64,000 bases of DNA from Paramecium tetraurelia (taxonomy: Eukaryota): the NCBI GenBank assembly GCA_000165425.1, contig CT868047.1:62001-126000 (forward strand). Reading direction: 5' to 3'. Numbering within the stretch: the stretch's first letter is position 1; every line of letters starts with the position of its first letter. The notes under the pieces were generated by a model. The model made no database searches, was not told the DNA's origin, and saw nothing but the letters and a program-made list of their open reading frames with translations. Of this stretch, positions 40,894-62,100 are shown in pieces. The position numbers were made by a program, and so were the translations under genes.

Positions 40894-42255
40894 TCAAATA
40901 AAATCTTCATCTTCATCCTTCCAATCTTCCTATTACACCAAATAATCCATGTCTATTTTGAATCGTAAAAATCCTCCCAATCCACTAAAACCTTTCATAA
41001 ATTGATTTCCTTCAACACTGTGATCTGTAATTAATTGGAAATCTAATCCATAATCCTTAAATTTCTCAGACAGATGCTCAACCAGATCCTCCTTTACTGA
41101 AATGACAAACTATTCCCCATTCTTCTCCTCAATTAAACTGCCTGGTTCATATCCCTCGTTTCCTTTCACGTATTTAATTGCTTTTTCTAAAAAATAACAT
41201 GTGATATCATACATTCAGTCTATTTGCTCTAACATTCCAAACGTAAATACTAAAGAGTGTCTACACAGACTAAAGTTTTGATTGTCTATGACTCAACAGC
41301 TCTCATCGTGTCCTAAACACCATACACCACCAAACCTGTATCTTTATCGATGTTTTCAAAGAACTATCCTACCAGATTCTTTTCTCTGATATATTTGACT
41401 TCCAACAAGGACTCTTAACTCAATTAAACTGCTTGATTCAATCCCTATTCACCACCGTAATTGATGTCCACAATTGAAATAATCAATGGTTATAATCTCT
41501 TATCAAAGAATTGACTTCCAGCTAAGTCGTTTTTGAAATCAGCTGAACCTGCCAAGACCAAACCCTTCACATTGGGTCTGTCCTCAGCAATGAAACAGGT
41601 CGTGGCTGTTTCACATACCTTTCTTAAGTAATTATGTCTTTTTTCCATACGGAGACGTGCAAATCTGACTGAAGATTGACCTCCCTTGTTGTGCTTCTTT
41701 GGCAAATCAACGTCAAAGGATTTGATAATTTACTTGCTGTTTCCTTGGATTGTGGCAAACAAGGATCCATTACCATCCATGATGATGAATCCAAAGGGGG
41801 GATCAATGTTTAGCAGTGCCCTTAGTTCTTCCACGTGGAATTGGGGATCACAAAAATAGAGAGACAAATCCAAAGGTCTGTATGGTTCAATGACAACTGA
41901 AATTTTCTTCTCTCCTTTGCCATCTGCTTATTACACAATACCACAAAAAACCACTAATCCATTATTTGGAGCCTTATTGTATGGTCTTAGTCCTTGAATA
42001 GATAATGTATATACTTAGTATGGCTGCTTAAATAGCTTCTTGCACAGATATTCTGTTTCCTTTGTCCTTAATGGATGCTGCTTCTGCATATTAGGTATTG
42101 AGTCTATTCGTGATATCTGAAATGATTCTTTTTGGAGGAATATACACAGACACAACACTTGTGCCAGCAGTTCTTTCTTGACTCAAAGTTTTGATGAGTT
42201 TCTTAAGTCTGAATTGTTCAAGTGCTATTTCAGCATCGCTAAGTTTCTAATCCAT
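40894..42255 (-). CDS. eRF1: Eukaryotic release factor 1, Paramecium-type
   Basis: [19 protein letters not shown] (in place of TASNIKS), [52 protein letters not shown]. Confidence 0.97.
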
Positions 42256-42344: not shown

Positions 42345-43460
42345 TCATTCTCCACCAACTGCTTACTCAATAAACCATAAACTTGATACAAATGCTATGG
42401 CAACCAAAAAGATTATGTACTTTTCCCATTTGTACTGTGAAATTGAAAACTCCTCTGTCAATGTCTCCATGGTTGAAATGTAAATAAATGTCCCAACTGA
42501 GATCGATACAAATATCCCAGTGTACAATGGCCCTTTGTCTGCCATGATCCATCCAATTCCTATCCCAACCGGATTCATTATAGCCTGAATCATTATCATG
42601 TAGGTTGATGTCGTCTTATTTACCCCTGCTTTCCTAAACGCAAGACCCAACGTCATCCCTTCAGCCTATAATATAATTTCACATTTCTAATTACCCATTT
42701 GTGACAACAAACCACCACGGCTATCCCTATACACAAAGAGACCTCCTCCTGAATGCCTATTGACAATCCCTCAAAAACCGCATGGATACCCACAGCTATT
42801 TATAAGATGTAAGGAGCCCATGTATTGACATCCTAATAAACTATTGAATTTTTAGGATCTTGTGCTATTGATTTTCTCACCATTTGTACGAATGAGGCTT
42901 TCTTTGCTACAATTAACTAACAAAATTGACAATTTTAATACCTAAGTGTTGAGAGCATCCTTGAATGTTTCCTCAGTATCCTTTTTGTTGCTAACAAAGC
43001 TTCTGCATCCACACTCCCATTCACAAATAGTTGATTTTAATCTTATATCTAAGTATTTTTAGAATTGCTCCCGTGATGATGGAGGTCCTCATCGTGTCCG
43101 TGATCGTGATGATGATCTGTTATTATTTTTTCAATAAAAAGGATCAGAGCAAAACTAGCTATAGATATTGCATATGCAAATGGAAAATGCTCCTCATCGT
43201 CATCAAAAGATTATTCAAAGTTCTCTGCTGCCTCTGGTAACAAATGAACCAAACCTACTGCCAGAAATAGACCCCCAGAAAATGCCCCCATGTATGCCAA
43301 AAGTTTCTATCCGTTCATGATTTACTTGTACCTTATTTGACTTGAATGCTTTGAGTCTTATTGGGAGACTACCCACAATAAGAATTAACATAAAAAAGGT
43401 GATCATGCATCCCACTTTGGTGATTGCAAGAACAACTTGATTCGAATCGTCATCACTCAT
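42345..43460 (-). CDS. ZIP (SLC39) zinc/metal transporter
   Basis: GGLFLAVGLVHLLPE, His loop DHHHDHGHDEDLHHHG, GIHAVFEGLSIG, HKW-AEG, GTFIYIS. Confidence 0.92.
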
Positions 43461-44511
43461 TGATTTAATTAAATGCCAACATTATACTATATTTATGATT
43501 CTTATAATAACTCTTCATTAAACTATGAATCACTTTCTATATCCAATCTATGAACCAACAAATTACCCCCCCCCCATATATTCTACTCATTCAAATAATA
43601 TTACTATACTCAAACACTTTTGTTGATTCCTAATATTATCATAGATAGAAGTGTTGAATTGAAATTGCATATCTATATATTGGATCTAAATAGAACTATT
43701 AGTAAACTGGAGATTTCAAAATCACAACAAAATGGTATAATTATGCATTAATAGTTTATCAACATATAAAAGTCAAAATAAATTCTGTATTTAAATGAAA
43801 AGTTATTCTCTCACATCTAAATTCAGATTTTCTGTTGACTTTAATTATCATACAATATAGTCAGTATCTGATTATGCTAAAAGTAGGATTGATAGAAGTA
43901 CTTTACTAAGATTATGCTAAATTATACACTCAAATTTCTCAGATATGCTATATTATTTTACACATATTCTAAAAATATGAATTGTAATAATTTGCTAATG
44001 AAAGAAGACTCAAAAAGACTCAAAAACCTTCAGATTTTCAAGATAGAGAGAGGGGATTTTATATAAGTGATGGATTTACATATAATTATTTATATACAGT
44101 GATCAAGTTTAAATCTAATATTAGTGTATTTTGTGTATGCTTATAACAATAAATGCACTAATCCTTGGTTGCTATATGAAATGCAAGAATAATTCAGAAT
44201 AAGAATAAAAAATTGCAGAAAATTGATATTTCAAGAGAAGCAAGGAACAATTTCAAAAAGAGACTTGTGAAGGATTAGAAAATTATAATTTGATTCCTTC
44301 ATAAATATCAAAATATAAGGCTAAAATTTTTGAATCCTTTTTAAATAATGACTATTTAGTTAAGCTAAGTAGTATGATGAATCATTCAGGATATTCTATA
44401 AAATGGAAAAAGTAATAAGGAGATGGATAAACCTTAAAATTAAGTGAATTTTAATTATAATGAATATTGTATATTTATAAATATATATTAATTATATAGA
44501 AAGAAATACTG

Positions 44512-45642
44512 TCACTCTTCAATTTTTACTTTCTATTTTAATTTACTTCTTTCTAAATAATAGACAGGGTTGAGATGAAACTATTTAAAGCATTTAATTG
44601 TACAAAGCGTTACATTTATTTTATAGTATTTATGACAGCTTTCACAAATAAAACTTGATTTGTGGACTTTTTGATTATTCTATTTTTAACACACTTTACA
44701 TCTATTATAACAATTGTACACATACTTCTAGGAATGCAGACCTCTCATAGGGAAATGCAGATTCTTTTCATCCTTGAAAGGAGCTAAATGTGTTGAAATC
44801 ACTTATTTAATTAATTTTGTTGCTTTAATTTTTTTTGTGTATTTTTTAGGGTATTAATTTTGTTAGATTAGTTGGAGATTAAAGATCATGGTATCAGTCT
44901 CTTAATAGGTAAATTTAGGCAAATTTACAAGTAATCTAGCTAAATAATAGATAGAATTTGGTATATCATGTATTAATGTAACATCTTTTATTAAAGAATA
45001 TATGTTATACATTTTTACATATTACTCGTTCTAATCTAATTACTTAGCAAATTTCTCGTGGATCTCATCTACTTTTTTTAATTAATTTAAAGTGAATTTC
45101 TCATAGTCTTCTAGTTTTTCATTATCCTACTAATATTTAAGGATCACATGTTAATTGGAATGTTTAATCGTCAAATAACCATTCGACGAATTGGCTTAAT
45201 CTGTATTCTTTATCCAGATGAAAGCCTTACAGCTGGGATGAGGTAATTCTAACAATCGAAGTGCATGCTGAATTGTTTCTTTTTGTTCTCCCAAGAAATC
45301 TGGACCATAATTTTTAAAATGCAAGCAAACGAAAATCCTATTAACAAGAATTTCAAGAAGAAAGAGCTTAATAGCATCATAGTACCCATTTTCTTTGGAT
45401 TTAAGTTAATCTACATCAAATTGTTGTTGTTTAATAAGAGTGGAAGAGTTGGAATTGTAAGCATAAAGGAATATTGAGTTAATTTCTGATATAAGTCTTT
45501 AGAAAACTATTATTGTAACAAAATTGTTATCCTCTGACTCATATTTATTAGACAATTGTATTTTTGATTAATAGGCTAATTTTACATATAATGCAGCCTC
45601 GACGGTGTCCATAATATAAGCAACATCAGCAGATGAACTCAT
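44512..45642 (-). CDS. Intronless 376-aa protein with C-terminal piggyBac-transposase-type cysteine-rich domain
   Basis: Open frame MSSSADVAY...KVKIEE-TGA. C-term LHFP...RCKVC...SSFICESC...VTLCTIKCFKQFH at 44575-44757. Confidence 0.8.
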
Positions 45643-46540
45643 CTATTTATCTTTAATATTTTTTAATCAAATTTCACTCAGTGTTAATTTAAATAACTAA
45701 AATCAAATATTCATACATCCCCCGAGAAATATGTTTTTTCAATTCAGCCCTTAAATTTTTGGGCCATACTATTTATGAAGCAAAATAGAACGTGTATAAT
45801 TTACTGTAATATTAAATCATATTCAATGAATTGCATTTTATTAGAATGATTTTTGTGCTGTGATAATAATTTGATTAATATTCTCTAATCAGCAAATCTT
45901 TGATTTATTTCCTAGAATTCATAATCTAAATAAATTATATCCTTTCTAATAATTCCAGTGTTATAGGTCTCACTTATTTGAAGTAACCAAACACATTAGA
46001 TTCAGAAGATCCAATTTCAATTAATCATACATTTGTATTCCCTCAAAAGCTTACTACTTTCTTTATGGATATACTATTTTATCTTAAAAACTAAAATATA
46101 ACAATTTTCCCATTTTCCATAAAAAAGCTTCTACTACTTTCTTTTCAAGTATTTTTACATATATTTTATATTTTTATTTTCATATTTATATACATAAGCA
46201 TACTAAATAATTCATTTATTTTTTGTTTTTAAATAAAATTTATAAACTTGAAATAAGAATTTCTTTACATCAGACACACACTTTTATATATATTATTTTT
46301 AATAATTCTATTTCCTATGCAACATAATTAACCTGCATATTATGTTACTGTTATAAAACTCAATAATAACAAGTAATGTGTGAATGTAGTTTTAAAATTA
46401 TTTAGAGACTGATCCACCTAGAAGTCTAATTAGAATGTTGATTCTTGTGTAAGTCAACATTCTAATTATTATACAATCATACTCTAGTTAGTTATCTATT
46501 AAATTAATTAAAAAACTTTGATATATTATATTAAGAAAGT

Positions 46541-49191
46541 ATGTAAAATGAGATAGATTAAATACACAGTCCCTTACTAAAAAATGATAGAGAATCAGAA
46601 CAGAGAGCGTAAATGATAGAGATGCAAGTCTTTAGGAGTTTGAATTAGAATGATTTAGAGAAACATTAGAAAAAAGATGAAATATTAGAAATTGAATCAA
46701 ATAAATTATAATAGATATTGGAAGCAAAAAGTTAATGGAAAACACTCCTAAAAGGATGGAAGAAAGATGGAAATAAATAATAGTAAAATGATGATAATTA
46801 TTTTGGATTTTAATATAATAAATTATTAGAAATCTTTGATCTGAATTAAATAATTAAAGAGGCTCAAAGCTCTTTATAAAAACATGATCAAGAGAAGGAC
46901 TTGATAGAGAAAAGATTGAAAATTTAGATTGAAAAATTAAATTAATTGGGAGGTATTTATGGTCTACAGAACTTTTTGAAAACTTGTATAAAGCAGGGTT
47001 TGGATGATACGAATGATTACGATTTGAAAATGAGAGAGAAATATTTTGGTAAGAATGAGAAACCTCAAATAGCAATAAAAAGTGTACTACAAATAATAAT
47101 TGAATAATTTCAAAAGGAAAGGTTGTTTTAATTATTATTGATAATAACAACTATTAACTTAATAATCTATTTCCATGAGAATGTGTAGATTTACTCATTG
47201 TACATAATAATGCTAATAATAATGGTAGTGTATAAAGGAGTGATAAAATAACAGTATAATAAGGAGATAGTGTAGCATTAAAACGACATCAAGGAGAGGA
47301 GTAAACATTTAATAAAGAGATGTAATGTATTAAGAAATGGAGATGACTCAATTTAGATTCATAATAGTTAATTGGTGGTTGGAGACATATTGATTTTCAA
47401 GCAAGGAGATTTCATATAATGTGATGGTATAATCACTAAGCTATCAAATTGCAATGGAATCGAAGTATTGCAACCATTCCCTAATCTTTTTAACACTCAC
47501 GAGGTTAAAAACGTAGATGAAGTAAAAGATTTACAAGTTATGCATGATGAATAGATGCAGCCTAATATATGTCTGATTGATAATTTCATTTTTGCTGGTT
47601 CTCAAATAATAAAGGGGTCTCTGGACAATTGCTAGTGTGTAGTGTTGGGTAGAAATCATCTGATTACATATAGTACAAGTAGTCCTTTTTGGAGGACACA
47701 AAAACAGAAAAATAAAGAACAACTTATTTGAAATAGAATTCTATGTATAATCCTTTTGCTTTTAAAATTGAATCACTCATGAATAAAATTGGAATACAAT
47801 GCATAATCAGTCTACTTATTTTACTGATAATATTGCTATTCAGGAATACTTATTTAATTAATATTACTCAAATTCTTTTGTATTTGTCATAGCTATCAAT
47901 AATTACTATACCATCTTAACTACTCCAATTGATAAACTTGTTTATGATCTATGTAATAAAGAAATGCAGACAAAGAAGTATTTATATCTAGGACTATTTA
48001 TCGTTGTATTGGTTGGGGTAAGTTAATGAAATAATTATTGATAAAATAGATAACAAAGTTTCAATGTTCAATAAATCATAAATAAATATTAGATATTTCA
48101 CCCAATCGCAATTAGAGGATGCATAAAAAATAGCAATTCAAACAGATCTTGTGAAAGAGGATGAAGTAAATGATAGGTATATCGAAGGTAATTTGTTAAG
48201 CAGTAGTTTCGAATAGAAAAACAAATTTATGTTTCTGAGTAGAAGACTTGTTTGCCCAACTTTGGATCATTTAAAATTAGAAAGGATTTAGTCAAGTAAG
48301 ACATTGGAGTGGCTAGAATAACAGAAATAGAAATTCTAGTTTTAAGGAATTGTTGATTAATAAAAGCTGTATGAGGAGATTAAAAATAAGAACATTATCA
48401 TTGGAGGAAATGCTGATAGAAAAGAACAATTGATAAATTTACTTAAACTCTATGACAAAATTATATTCATAAAGGGAGAAGAAAATGATGGCAAAGCTAT
48501 GGAAATGGCCCATGTTAGTATTGGACCTCATGAGTCTAGATCATGCATCAAACTGTTCAATCATCTAGAGTAAAGCGATCATAGTTACATATCATCCATG
48601 TATGAATGCATCAGTTAAGGGAGGGCAGTTTATTTTTATATTCTGTCATATTCTTATGCTTTGGCTTGCACTTCATAAACCATCATGATCTTTGCAATCT
48701 CTTCAGCCATTTTATCTGATGATATTTTTATTATGCCTATTCCAACTTTCATCATTTTCTATCTCACTTTGAATCATTTTTCACATTAGATTTAAAAACA
48801 ATGCAATTAGGATGTCTAGACCTACGTAATGCATCGAAGTCCCTATACGAAGTAGGGTAGAATTATTGATAGACATACAATGAGGAAACTATACAAATTG
48901 CATTCCATTTTAATTGTTGAGTTACTTATCGCTTCTTACTATGGCTTTTTTCAATCTGTTTAGGATATCTACATTGGATTATTATTTAGCAAACATGTCT
49001 TTATTATGGTTAGACCTATTAAATAAGTGTTACAATAAATTGAAGGCATTATATATGGATTATTAATCAATCTAATCAATTAATTCATAACTTATTCAAA
49101 TTAAGATTATCAAAGCATCTCAATACTCTTAAGAAACTATTCAATTGGTTTAATTGTTGTAGCATTTAATTTATTTGTTGGTTATAGATGA
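46541..49191 (+). CDS. Degenerate PMCA-like (P2B) P-type ATPase homologue lacking the N domain; one 2-nt frameshift
   Basis: LGGIYGL..LKT...MREKYFGKN, VLRNG..LVVGDIL..GDFIQCDG, IPSQL (for VPEGL), DKIDN (for DKTGT), KGEENDGKAMEMAHVSIG, SQGRAVY. Extra CT at ~47619-47622. Confidence 0.75.
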
Positions 49192-59163: not shown

Positions 59164-62100
59164 TCAAAGGTTTTCTTCCAAATGTTCAGATTTATCTATC
59201 CTTCTTATTAATTCTTTCTCTGATGTTTAATTTAATTGTCTCTTCATTCTATTTAACTGCTCCAACTGATCATCATTTTCTCTTCTCATTATATTTAGCT
59301 GCTCGCTTTTTGCCTACAACAATGTTTAAGCATCTGACAACTCAAAATTCAGTCTTTATATTTCTTTTGTCAACTTCGCCACATCCTCATTGTCTCCTCT
59401 TCTTTTATTCAATTATTCAAAAGTTTATTCGAACTCTTATTCTTTCAACTCTAGATCACTCTTCAACTTTTCAACTTATCTTCTCAATGATTATTTCTCA
59501 CTATTTGATTTTAGCTAACTGCTCTCTAATTCATGAATCTCATTCAATAAATTGATGTTTTTCTATTTCAATTATTCATAGTCTTCAACATGTACATAAT
59601 TCTAATCAATTTATCTTCTAAGAGAATCATACAATACTTCTTTATCTTAGAGTTGAATTTCTAAATTCGAAAATTATTATTATATTTGATTCAATTTTGA
59701 CTCTTTTTAATCGAGCTTTTATTATAATATTTCAATCTCATTATTCAAAACAGCCTAAATTATCTATTTAAATATATACCTTTTCATTTTCAACTTAGAA
59801 TTCCCAATCTTATCTCTAGTTTTCTCCTTCAGCATAATTTTGGATCTTTTAATTCAATTATTCAATTTCCTCAGTTAACTCATTTTTAACTTCAACTAAT
59901 TTTTCTTTTTGATTTTCTAAACTCTTAATTAAAGAATCCTTCTCTTGAAGCAATTACTCAATTTATTTATTAGATTCCTTATGTTCCTCTTAATATTTAA
60001 TAAATTAATCTTCATTCGATTACAACTACAAATTTAGATTAGCGATTTGATCTAATAGTTTTTACTCTCTCTTTCTTGATTCCTCGATTTTCTTTTAAGA
60101 TTCTAACATAGCATGATCAAGCGATTTTTAGGCTTTGTCAATTTAGTTATTTTGATTGTGAATTTCAATTTCGTATTAGTTAATTGCTTACTTATACTAT
60201 GATATTCTTGTTTCTTAAAAGCCAAATTTTTAGTTAAATTGGCTTCTTTCAAGATCTCTTTGTTGAGTTGATTCTTCTAATTCCTTCAAATAAATATCAG
60301 CACTTTATTTTAATTCTACTACTTGGAATTCTGCTTAGGTCAATCTTTCCTTATTTGATTTTAATAAAGATTCAAACTTCTATTTTTCTGAATTAAATTA
60401 GCTGATCTACCAGTCTTTTTATTTAATTTGTTCTTAATAATTTTAGATCTATTGAGAGGAACTAAATTCCAATTCAATTTTTGCAGTTTCCAATTCCTTT
60501 GCTCTCTATTTTTATTACTTTAATTATTGTTCCATTAATTATTTTTCTTATTGTAACTTGACATTTTATTCCTTTAATTCTTTTTTGAAGTTCTCCAATT
60601 CAAATTAATAATCTTCCAATTCCTTTTATTTTTATTTCTCTGTATCGCTCAATTAATGCTTCAAACCATTAATTGAATTATCTAACAACTGTTAATTAAG
60701 TTTATATTCATTGATTTATTCATCCTTCTTACGACTTTAGATAATTAATTTTTCATTCTCTAAATTTAGGAATTTAATTTATTCTTCTAAATTTTAGAGT
60801 TATTATTGGTTAAAACCTTTCAATTCTTAAATATCAGTTTCCCATTGCTCCCTAATACTGGCTTCAATTTCTTTTGTAACATTCTTTTATAATTCTAATT
60901 CGCTCTTGATATCATTAGCAATAACTTATTGTTTACTTAATTCATGTAATTTAGTCTAGTACTTAGAGGACTATTCTAAAAGTTATTGTTTTAACTTCTA
61001 AAGATCTTCTTATTGTTATTATATTTCTAAATCTTTGAATTTATTGATTCTTTCTAATTCTTACTATAATATTTTGATCTCTTTCTCTTACTCTTGATCT
61101 ATAGCATATAATTTTGCATTTTCAGTCTTCATTACTTAATAATTGTTCTCAGATTGTTACAATTATGCTTACAACTCTCTTATTATTTAATCTTATTGCT
61201 AATTTTCTGTTGAGTGTTTTAATTCGGTTTCATTTAGTCTTCTTTACAAGTTGTTGATTTATTATTATTCATAATATTATTTGAGTTCCTAGATCTATTT
61301 TTGATGTGAGAGTTCTTATTTGGCTTGTTTATCATGAACTAGTTATACTTCCTTATGCAAGCTCATATTTTTTAATCTGAATTCTTCGCACATTTAGTTT
61401 TATTGTTGAAGTTATTATTAAATCACTAACTTCTCGTCTTGAAGATCGTCTATCAACAATTACATCTTATTTTTTTCATTTACTAAATTATCAAATTAAC
61501 CTAAGAGTTTTGAATACTTTTATTATTCCTATATAAGTTAGTCGTTCTTTTTGCTCAAAATTTATTAATGTTATTATTGGATGTCCTTTAATTGTATTTA
61601 GCTTTAATGAGAACAATCATTTTCAACTTTTATTTTTGTTTCCTCAATCTATCTTGCACTTTTGAAATGAGTATCTTGAACTTATTATTTCAAATTTTAT
61701 AATTCATACTCTAAATTTTAGATATAGGCTTTTAAATTCTAATTCTCATCAACACTTTGAACATTCTTGATAATAAATCATAATAATTACATTTTGTGAA
61801 ATCTAAATAAACTTGGTTTCATTTTTTTTCAATTCATTGACTAATAGTTAAATCTCCTCATTCTTCTTTTATAATAACAATTATTATTGTTTAATATTAT
61901 GTTATTCAGTTTATAATTTATAAGTTTGATTAGAGAGTTGAATTTCTAATTCATTGATAATTTTATTGTATTTTTATTGATCAGCTTAGATTTAGTTTTA
62001 AAGTTAAAGATTTTCAGTACTCAATTTACCATATCTAGCTTCATATGAATCAATAATTTTGATGTTTTCCTTCTTTCTTAAATTCGGAGATTAATCCTAC

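Follow-up and report, generated by a model that had tools for sequence, protein, structure and literature searches.

What is a short Paramecium tetraurelia protein that ends in a piggyBac-type zinc finger but carries no transposase core that Pfam can recognise, and could it belong to the machinery that rearranges the genome of this ciliate? Paramecium removes approximately 45,000 internal eliminated sequences (IESs) with the piggyBac-derived protein PiggyMac (Pgm) and five PiggyMac-like (PgmL) partners. The protein in question is encoded on the minus strand at positions 44512-45642 of a 64,000-nucleotide stretch of contig CT868047.1 (GenBank assembly GCA_000165425.1, contig positions 62,001 to 126,000, forward strand), referred to here as the window. 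An earlier note, written from the nucleotide letters, had proposed that the locus encodes an overlooked, diverged partner or regulator of genome rearrangement. The reading that we favour, at a likelihood that we put slightly short of even, is that the locus is a two-exon host gene of the macronuclear genome whose 368-residue product is an N-terminally truncated, catalytically inert descendant of piggyBac with a proposed accessory role in the excision machinery. Taken separately, the identity and ancestry as a truncated and inert piggyBac derivative are probably right, and a function in DNA elimination is a tentative proposal.

The C-terminal cysteine-rich domain and its relatives

On sequence comparison, the C-terminal ~75 residues of the protein are a piggyBac-family cysteine-rich domain (CRD) of the two-zinc type followed by a conserved basic tail. 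The two elements lie as follows:

44575-44757, minus strand: CRD, a span that includes the intron; spliced residues 296-348, isoelectric point (pI) 9.6; placed by ligand pattern and hhalign
44515-44574, minus strand: tail, LNPxxYLxR and then a basic cluster; placed by conservation in 9 sequences

The unspliced translation contains the pattern HFP-x15-RCKVC-x14-CESC...LCTIKCFKQFH at the end of a 376-codon frame, just as the earlier note had read it, except that the spacer of ten residues given after CESC runs to the next cysteine and the spacer to LC is nine residues. After splicing, the finger reads HFP-x8-CKVC-x14-CESC-x10-C-x3-C-x4-H. We found the arrangement H-x10-CxxC-x13/14-CxxC-x9/10-C-x3-C-x4-H in 8/8 family members and in 7/7 piggyBac-family matches examined, and all eight putative zinc ligands are kept in each of the eight members. 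Consistent with this pattern, the family aligned by hhalign with an alignment of five piggyBac-family proteins that bear the transposase core domain DDE_Tnp_1_7 (probability 98.8%, E 7.4e-17, 67 columns). Repeating the comparison with another family alignment gave E values of 9.2e-17 and 8.7e-17, with the last 67-78 columns aligned. The assignment of the C terminus to the piggyBac-family CRD, which the earlier note had made from the pattern, is thus borne out by hhalign and by the ligands.

The Pfam model of this finger, zf-Tnp_2 (PF13842), gave a more divided answer. The model matched eight of the nine members, but only two of them reached its gathering score of 24 bits (P0003 at 24.5 and P0006 at 25.5) and six fell below the cut-off; the member from P. 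bursaria was not matched at E<=0.1. The window protein itself scored 19.7 bits unspliced and 21.9 bits spliced (as the public model P0002), both below 24. Searches of PDB sequences with the whole protein, the family profile and the CRD peptide met no Pgm or piggyBac CRD or core but only unrelated proteins below significance, and the best phmmer match of the CRD peptide among PDB sequences was an unrelated protein at E 0.057. We claim no cross-brace geometry for the CRD because AlphaFold2 (AF2) did not fold it confidently; its predicted local distance difference test score (pLDDT) was ~30 in the model of P0002 and ~60 in the model of the P. bursaria protein.

The CRD is strongly basic not only in the window protein but also across the family, with pI values of 9.1-9.8. 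In the tail, L357, N358, P359, Y362, L363 and R365 are invariant in the 9 sequences, and this segment also aligns with the piggyBac-family matches, which have NxRKK. From its composition, the basic cluster could possibly act as a nuclear localisation signal.

A word-indexed search returned 8 homologous proteins (E 3e-228 to 7e-59, 40-98% identity) from P. tetraurelia, P. octaurelia, P. sonneborni and P. primaurelia. An exhaustive HMMER search with a 7-sequence family profile against 1.84 billion representative proteins returned 37 proteins at E<=1e-3, and the full-length matches among them came from Paramecium only, that is, from the four aurelia species and from P. bursaria (KAM3140358.1, P0011, 312 residues; E 6.2e-18, profile positions 56-362). 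The architecture is kept from P. bursaria to the aurelia species. Matches outside Paramecium sit at the CRD, on the C-terminal ~70-100 profile positions, with the exception of P0040, whose envelope extends further upstream. When we scanned the 35 non-self matches with Pfam, 19 carried zf-Tnp_2 (E<=0.01) and five carried DDE_Tnp_1_7. A search for longer or fused relatives found none among 1357 candidates at E<=0.01, which is weak evidence.

In a tree of the 8 full-length members, the P. tetraurelia protein pairs with a P. octaurelia protein (support 98/100), a second paralogue pair stands apart (93/97), and the P. bursaria protein sits on a very long branch. Even the closest P. octaurelia relative is 73% identical to the P. 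tetraurelia protein. Identity to P0002 climbs from the N terminus to the C terminus, from 19-62% in the predicted RNase H-like part through 25-85% in the middle to 51-86% in the CRD and tail. Two shorter proteins, P. primaurelia P0010 (103 residues) and P. sonneborni P0008 (227 residues), correspond in the alignments to inner or C-terminal segments of the family; they could be gene models cut short or paralogues in decay.

Gene structure, transcription and genomic setting

Under the ciliate nuclear code (NCBI table 6), the window holds a frame of 376 codons from ATG to TGA at 44512-45642 on the minus strand, with the ATG at 45642, 20 TAA/TAG codons that this code reads as glutamine, and an in-frame TGA 8 codons 5' of the ATG. 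The gene is divided as follows:

44726-45642, minus strand: coding exon 1, codons 1-305 plus 2 nucleotides, from the first ATG; open reading frame under table 6
44702-44725, minus strand: intron of 24 nucleotides, GTATG...AATAG, in frame; homologue alignment and X5 contig
44512-44701, minus strand: coding exon 2 with its TGA stop at 44512-44514; open reading frame, homologues and X5 contig

The earlier note had described this frame as intronless, which is wrong, because eight of its codons, YVYNCYNR, are missing in 8/8 database homologues and the same 24 nucleotides, GTA...TAG at 44702-44725, are skipped in an assembled contig from run X5. This contig, of 1383 nucleotides, spans 44511-45917 minus exactly 24 nucleotides at 44702, the RNA status of the run being a guess. 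Contigs with a word share of 0.89-0.96, as expected for a missing intron, occur in 13 runs from 7 studies, for which the RNA status is likewise guessed. We take the 24-nucleotide element to be a typical tiny Paramecium intron; its removal leaves a mature protein of 368 residues. Stranded oligo-dT RNA-seq runs X21, X22 and X23 (~19-22 million reads each) placed 24, 27 and 18 reads on the stretch, with nearly all first mates on the plus strand, which is what the usual stranded libraries yield for an mRNA read off the minus strand. These data show transcription of the gene from the minus strand and splicing of its transcript.

The spliced X5 contig also extends 275 nucleotides 5' of the start codon, and a few raw reads fall at 45850-46071. 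This stretch, 45643-45917 on the minus strand, contains an 82-codon open reading frame (45674-45922, minus strand) with no Pfam match. It may belong to the gene as a 5' leader, which would be unusually long for Paramecium, or be a small transcript of its own that abuts the gene.

The window protein is 98% identical to the P. tetraurelia protein CAK66733.1 (XP_001434130.1, GSPATT00035863001), the 358-residue model referred to here as P0002. This public model begins at the second methionine (Met11), leaving out window 45613-45642 (minus strand). Because 4/7 full-length aurelia homologues begin at the methionine equivalent to 45642 (MSSS/MNSS), the form of 368 residues is likelier, and the alignment suggests that the public model lacks 10 codons at its start. 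NCBI names the protein unnamed or uncharacterised, and in UniRef it carries an automatic name, 'PiggyBac transposable element-derived protein domain-containing protein'. Thus, a gene that the earlier note regarded as invisible and overlooked is annotated already, yet it is undescribed in the papers searched and the protein is uncharacterised. Among the main texts of the CC-licensed PMC and bioRxiv papers searched, none contained GSPATT00035863001, GSPATG00035863001, GSPATP00035863001, A0C7G6 or XP_001434130, none named PgmL6, PgmL7, mini-PgmL or 'PiggyMac-like 6', and none of the papers listed contained zf-Tnp_2. The gene identifier is also missing from the readable supplements of Arnaiz 2010 (PMC3091696) and Arnaiz 2017 (PMC5485702).

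The neighbouring open reading frames encode eRF1, a ZIP transporter and a P-type ATPase, and no convincing terminal inverted repeats flank the gene: the interval 43000-47200 contains 45 AT-rich inverted pairs, of which the best one that flanks the gene has 33 nucleotides with 73% complementarity. The earlier note had likewise seen no terminal repeats. Because its neighbours are host genes and convincing flanking inverted repeats are lacking, we read the locus as a host gene on a somatic (macronuclear) chromosome, not as a transposon copy.

On the downstream side, pieces of open reading frame at 41169-42089 and 42656-43318 (both minus strand) match eRF1 domains 1-3 (domain 2 at E 3e-42) and a ZIP zinc transporter (E 1e-24), and both are host genes. 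On the other side, two long frames follow one another at 46541-47728 and 47743-49188 (both plus strand), the first of which matches the N terminus of a P-type cation ATPase (Cation_ATPase_N, E1-E2_ATPase); they probably belong to a single gene that is divided near 47730-47742 by a small intron or a frame change. Antisense to the ATPase gene lies a low-complexity frame of 328 codons (46212-47198, minus strand) with no Pfam match, an example of the long chance frames that do occur under the ciliate code in AT-rich DNA.

Fold and origin of the N-terminal 290 residues

Upstream of the CRD, the N-terminal 290 residues matched no Pfam family and no PDB sequence, and the exhaustive search returned nothing outside Paramecium for them. 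Two regions can be distinguished:

45118-45525, minus strand: predicted RNase H-like region, residues ~40-175 of 368 (30-165 of P0002); AF2 and fold searches
44767-45117, minus strand: helical region that links the fold to the CRD, residues ~176-292; low-pLDDT AF2 helices and conservation

The first region carries the invariant motifs IIVF(Q/E)R on strand 1 and C-x-H-x-x-N-Y after strand 4, and the second carries the conserved block MYNIYSLIKD..IPNSIYYLA.FLVNLP. AF2, run on an alignment of 7 sequences, gave a model of P0002 with a mean pLDDT of 48.9, in which residues 30-200 reached 55-79. The order of its elements was E32-41, E46-53, E59-66, H76-89, E95-101, H110-120 and E129-135, after which came a hairpin and then a long helix. 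When the P. bursaria protein was the target, AF2 returned the same order, with a pLDDT of 56-73 over residues 20-110. The helices of the second region (H167-201, H204-212, H219-229 and H233-251) were predicted with low pLDDT.

With the P0002 model, Foldseek gave 6 matches at E<=1e-3, which comprised five Argonaute/PIWI chains and 8xih_B, titled only 'protein-DNA complex', and the next matches below were endonuclease V, retroviral RNase H and ribosomal protein uS11. Among the matches listed by structural alignment against 48,161 chains, most were RNase H-like or DDE-type proteins; two sugar kinases and a single protein of the actin-like ATPase fold also appeared. The matches that bear on the argument were the following, each with its score and number of aligned residues:

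RsAgo: 9.1, 135
Tn5 transposase: 9.1, 179
Med13: 9.1, 150
SIV integrase: 7.6, 107
piggyBac 6x67_C: 7.3, 184; root mean square deviation 5.5, model residues 31-250 on chain residues 262-495
piggyBat 9c0f_D: 6.6, 180

Among the matches listed, Tn5, piggyBac and piggyBat gave the longest alignments, at 179-184 residues. A second look at 998 Foldseek candidates returned the same structural classes; piggyBac was not among the matches listed for the P. bursaria model, nor did it appear in this Foldseek-based second look. These data suggest that residues ~40-175 are likely to adopt an RNase H-like fold.

Is this predicted fold what is left of a piggyBac core? Its position is consistent with such an origin. 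The distance from strand 1 to the C terminus is ~327 residues here versus ~332 in piggyBac, a transposase of 594 residues whose matched chain starts at residue 262. No more than ~40 residues lie ahead of the first predicted strand, and in the core-bearing matches the DDE_Tnp_1_7 domain (PF13843) starts 150-200 residues before the equivalent strands. Language-model features of residues 1-280, computed without the CRD, had three nearest clusters in which 23%, 66% and 14% of proteins carry PF13843 (score 0.79), which we treat as a lead only. The non-significant sub-optimal hhalign alignments run collinear with the CRD match and place FLYAYxSNS on the strand 2/3 hairpin, and VCLHFxNY on the ..MDNF.. 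strand-4 motif, of the cores. A piggyBac origin of the core is the most economical interpretation because the module lies directly 5' of a piggyBac finger at the right distance and the superpositions on IS4/piggyBac-type transposases are the longest.

The module is not an active DDD nuclease, as judged from the alignments, because no aspartate is invariant in the 7 aurelia sequences or in the 8 sequences that include P. bursaria; strand 1 has the invariant residues F37 and R39. This agrees with the earlier note, which had seen no DDD triad. We regard it as moderately supported that residues ~40-175 are a remnant of the RNase H-like catalytic domain of a transposase that has lost all three catalytic aspartates. 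With similarly moderate support, the helical stretch that follows may correspond to the post-catalytic helices of the transposase, and the whole protein to approximately the final 330 residues of a piggyBac transposase, the N-terminal DNA-binding and dimerisation part being absent. The eroded transposase core that the earlier note had suspected is thus plausible from structural prediction, although it is not backed by a PF13843 match or by significant profile alignments.

Relation to Pgm and candidate functions

To place the protein among its relatives, we compared it with described piggyBac derivatives. The PgmLs were found with the PF13843 core model, all keep that domain, and are 578-1085 residues long (Bischerour 2018, PMC6143343). 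Like PgmL1-PgmL5, the window protein is piggyBac-derived, encoded in the macronucleus, devoid of an intact DDD triad, equipped with a CRD towards the C terminus and kept in Paramecium species. Unlike them, it has 368 residues and no PF13843 match, and it lacks both the core part upstream of strand 1 and a coiled-coil extension. Pgm binding and a requirement in IES excision have been shown for the PgmLs, whereas for this protein they would be predictions. It is also not a close copy of any PgmL, since the family profile reached no core protein of its own genome at E<=1e-3. By these sequence comparisons it is not a described PgmL, in line with the overlooked partner that the earlier note had proposed.

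The CRD invites a closer comparison with that of Pgm. A 'variant' arrangement, with an upstream histidine, two CxxC pairs, two single cysteines and a final histidine, is described for Pgm and many piggyBac-like elements, as distinct from the CxxC-CxxC-CxxH-CxxC finger of Trichoplusia ni piggyBac (PMC8086355). Compared by published motif only, the window protein has the same type and order of eight ligands for two zinc ions as Pgm, but the last element is printed as CxxxH for Pgm and is C-x4-H here, one residue longer; its arrangement differs from that of T. ni piggyBac. The piggyBac CRD binds DNA sequence-specifically, whereas the Pgm CRD has a pI of 5.48 and purified Pgm and PgmL CRDs bound no DNA, according to Guerineau 2021 (PMC8086355). 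The piggyBac and piggyBat transposases (PDB 6x67 and 9c0f) have an aspartate triad, an N-terminal part of ~260 residues, terminal repeats and a Pfam core, all of which are absent here.

Outside Paramecium, the closest relatives of the CRD and tail are P0019, P0040, P0045 and P0046, metagenome or Logan proteins of ~490 residues (E 9e-7 to 2e-4). They share HFPEK..C..C.. and ..YH.....N.RKK with the family (hhalign E 8.7e-17) but have a full-length core, including its N-terminal part, and their similarity upstream of the CRD is not significant. Their cores are degenerate, those of P0019 and P0040 matching PF13843 only at E 5e-9 and 1e-10, and these four proteins may be dead piggyBac-derived (PGBD) proteins of other AT-rich eukaryotes. 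P0045 was found on 4 contigs, as was P0046, and for both the longest contig has 60,819 bases. Tetrahymena Lia5 and Tpb7 and Xenopus KOBUTA, set beside the window protein by description only, are likewise dead piggyBac derivatives retained by their host but are full-length and core-bearing. KOBUTA has been described as a possible inhibitor that would form heterodimers with an active transposase and so inactivate it (Bouallegue 2017), which provides a precedent for a modulator role. The protein misses the tested defining features of both a PgmL and a piggyBac transposase but, through its finger, is clearly one of the host proteins derived from piggyBac in the wider sense.

How might such a protein act? 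It would not cut DNA. It may enter the nucleus by way of its basic tail, its strongly basic CRD and tail could contact DNA or chromatin, and its dead RNase H-like core could serve as a surface for protein-protein interaction. On this model, it would assist or modulate the Pgm/PgmL excision machinery while the macronucleus develops, much like the non-catalytic PgmLs. Alternatively, a truncated derivative could act as a brake, as suggested for KOBUTA. We prefer an accessory excision subunit because dead piggyBac cores in Paramecium assemble with Pgm and are needed for correct localisation and for cleavage (PMC6143343).

Several results weigh against this reading. PF13843 did not match the window protein at E<=10 or any of the 9 members at E<=1, and outside the CRD the hhalign comparisons were not significant (E 0.075 and 0.36, probability <1%). 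The extended HMMER alignment to P0040 has low posteriors upstream of the CRD, and the family profile reached no core-bearing protein of the P. tetraurelia genome at E<=1e-3. Both AF2 models have a mean pLDDT of ~49, with the fold region at 55-79, and they are not independent because they share the same shallow alignment of 7-10 sequences. The CRD is basic (pI 9.6), in contrast to that of Pgm, and in PMC8086355 the purified CRDs of Pgm and the PgmLs bound no DNA. Finally, read depth at the gene is low in the three raw RNA runs.

Some of these results fit other explanations as well. The protein may have the same ancestry and yet work outside programmed DNA elimination, for example in vegetative cells, as a nuclear factor that binds particular sequences or chromatin, comparable to several vertebrate PGBD genes that have functions other than transposition. 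Taken as a complete alternative this is a distinct but lesser possibility, and we judge a role outside DNA elimination about as likely as one within it. The basic CRD is nearer to the DNA-binding type than to the acidic Pgm CRD (Guerineau 2021), the family profile does not extend to the Pgm and PgmLs of the same genome at E<=1e-3, contigs consistent with the spliced gene come from 13 runs of guessed RNA status, and a 2026 paper on the Pgm/PgmL4 proximity proteome and condensin (PMC13092971) still counts Pgm and five PgmLs in the text available. Against this, all piggyBac-derived Paramecium genes studied so far act in DNA elimination (Bischerour 2018, PMC6143343), and the fast evolution seen in the 73% identity to the closest P. 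octaurelia relative would fit genome defence. A different explanation, which we consider unlikely, is that only the CRD derives from piggyBac and that the N-terminal ~290 residues are unrelated, whether PIWI/Med13-like, integrase-like or not RNase H-like at all. The Argonaute/PIWI chains lead the Foldseek matches and Med13 scores as high as Tn5, but this explanation requires an extra fusion event and leaves the RNase H-like module lying exactly where a piggyBac core precedes the CRD, at the right distance. It also has to accommodate the length of the Tn5, piggyBac and piggyBat alignments among the matches listed, the PF13843-bearing language-model neighbours, which count weakly, and the collinear sub-optimal alignments, which put C-L-H-F-K-N-Y on the ..M-D-N-F.. 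motif without reaching significance. That the locus is a decaying transposon relic or a functionless chance frame is very improbable. Long chance frames under the ciliate code, low expression in the three raw RNA runs and the fast evolution of the N-terminal half would fit it, but 4 aurelia species and P. bursaria all retain the open frame, the intron position and the eight zinc ligands, transcripts are spliced and come from the sense strand, and the gene sits among ordinary host genes with no terminal repeats.

If the protein does act as an accessory excision subunit, it could represent a sixth class of piggyBac-derived component of DNA elimination, a 'mini-PgmL' made of a dead RNase H core, post-catalytic helices and a basic, possibly DNA-binding CRD. 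Such a class would be older than the split between P. bursaria and the aurelia species, would have been missed by PF13843-based surveys, and might be a targeting or limiting (dominant-negative-like) subunit of the excisase. We offer this extension as a speculative one. Because the published inventories that we read used the transposase-core model PF13843, as did the Blepharisma survey of ciliate piggyBac homologues, they would miss a family that keeps the CRD with a truncated, unrecognisable core. If a conserved basic-CRD protein indeed joins or modulates the excision complex, it would offer a new handle on how excision is targeted or regulated, and as an excision partner it would show how much of a domesticated transposase the host can dispense with while retaining the gene. 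Should its function lie elsewhere, it would be a clean case of a piggyBac fragment that was exapted independently, in a lineage with six other domesticated ones.

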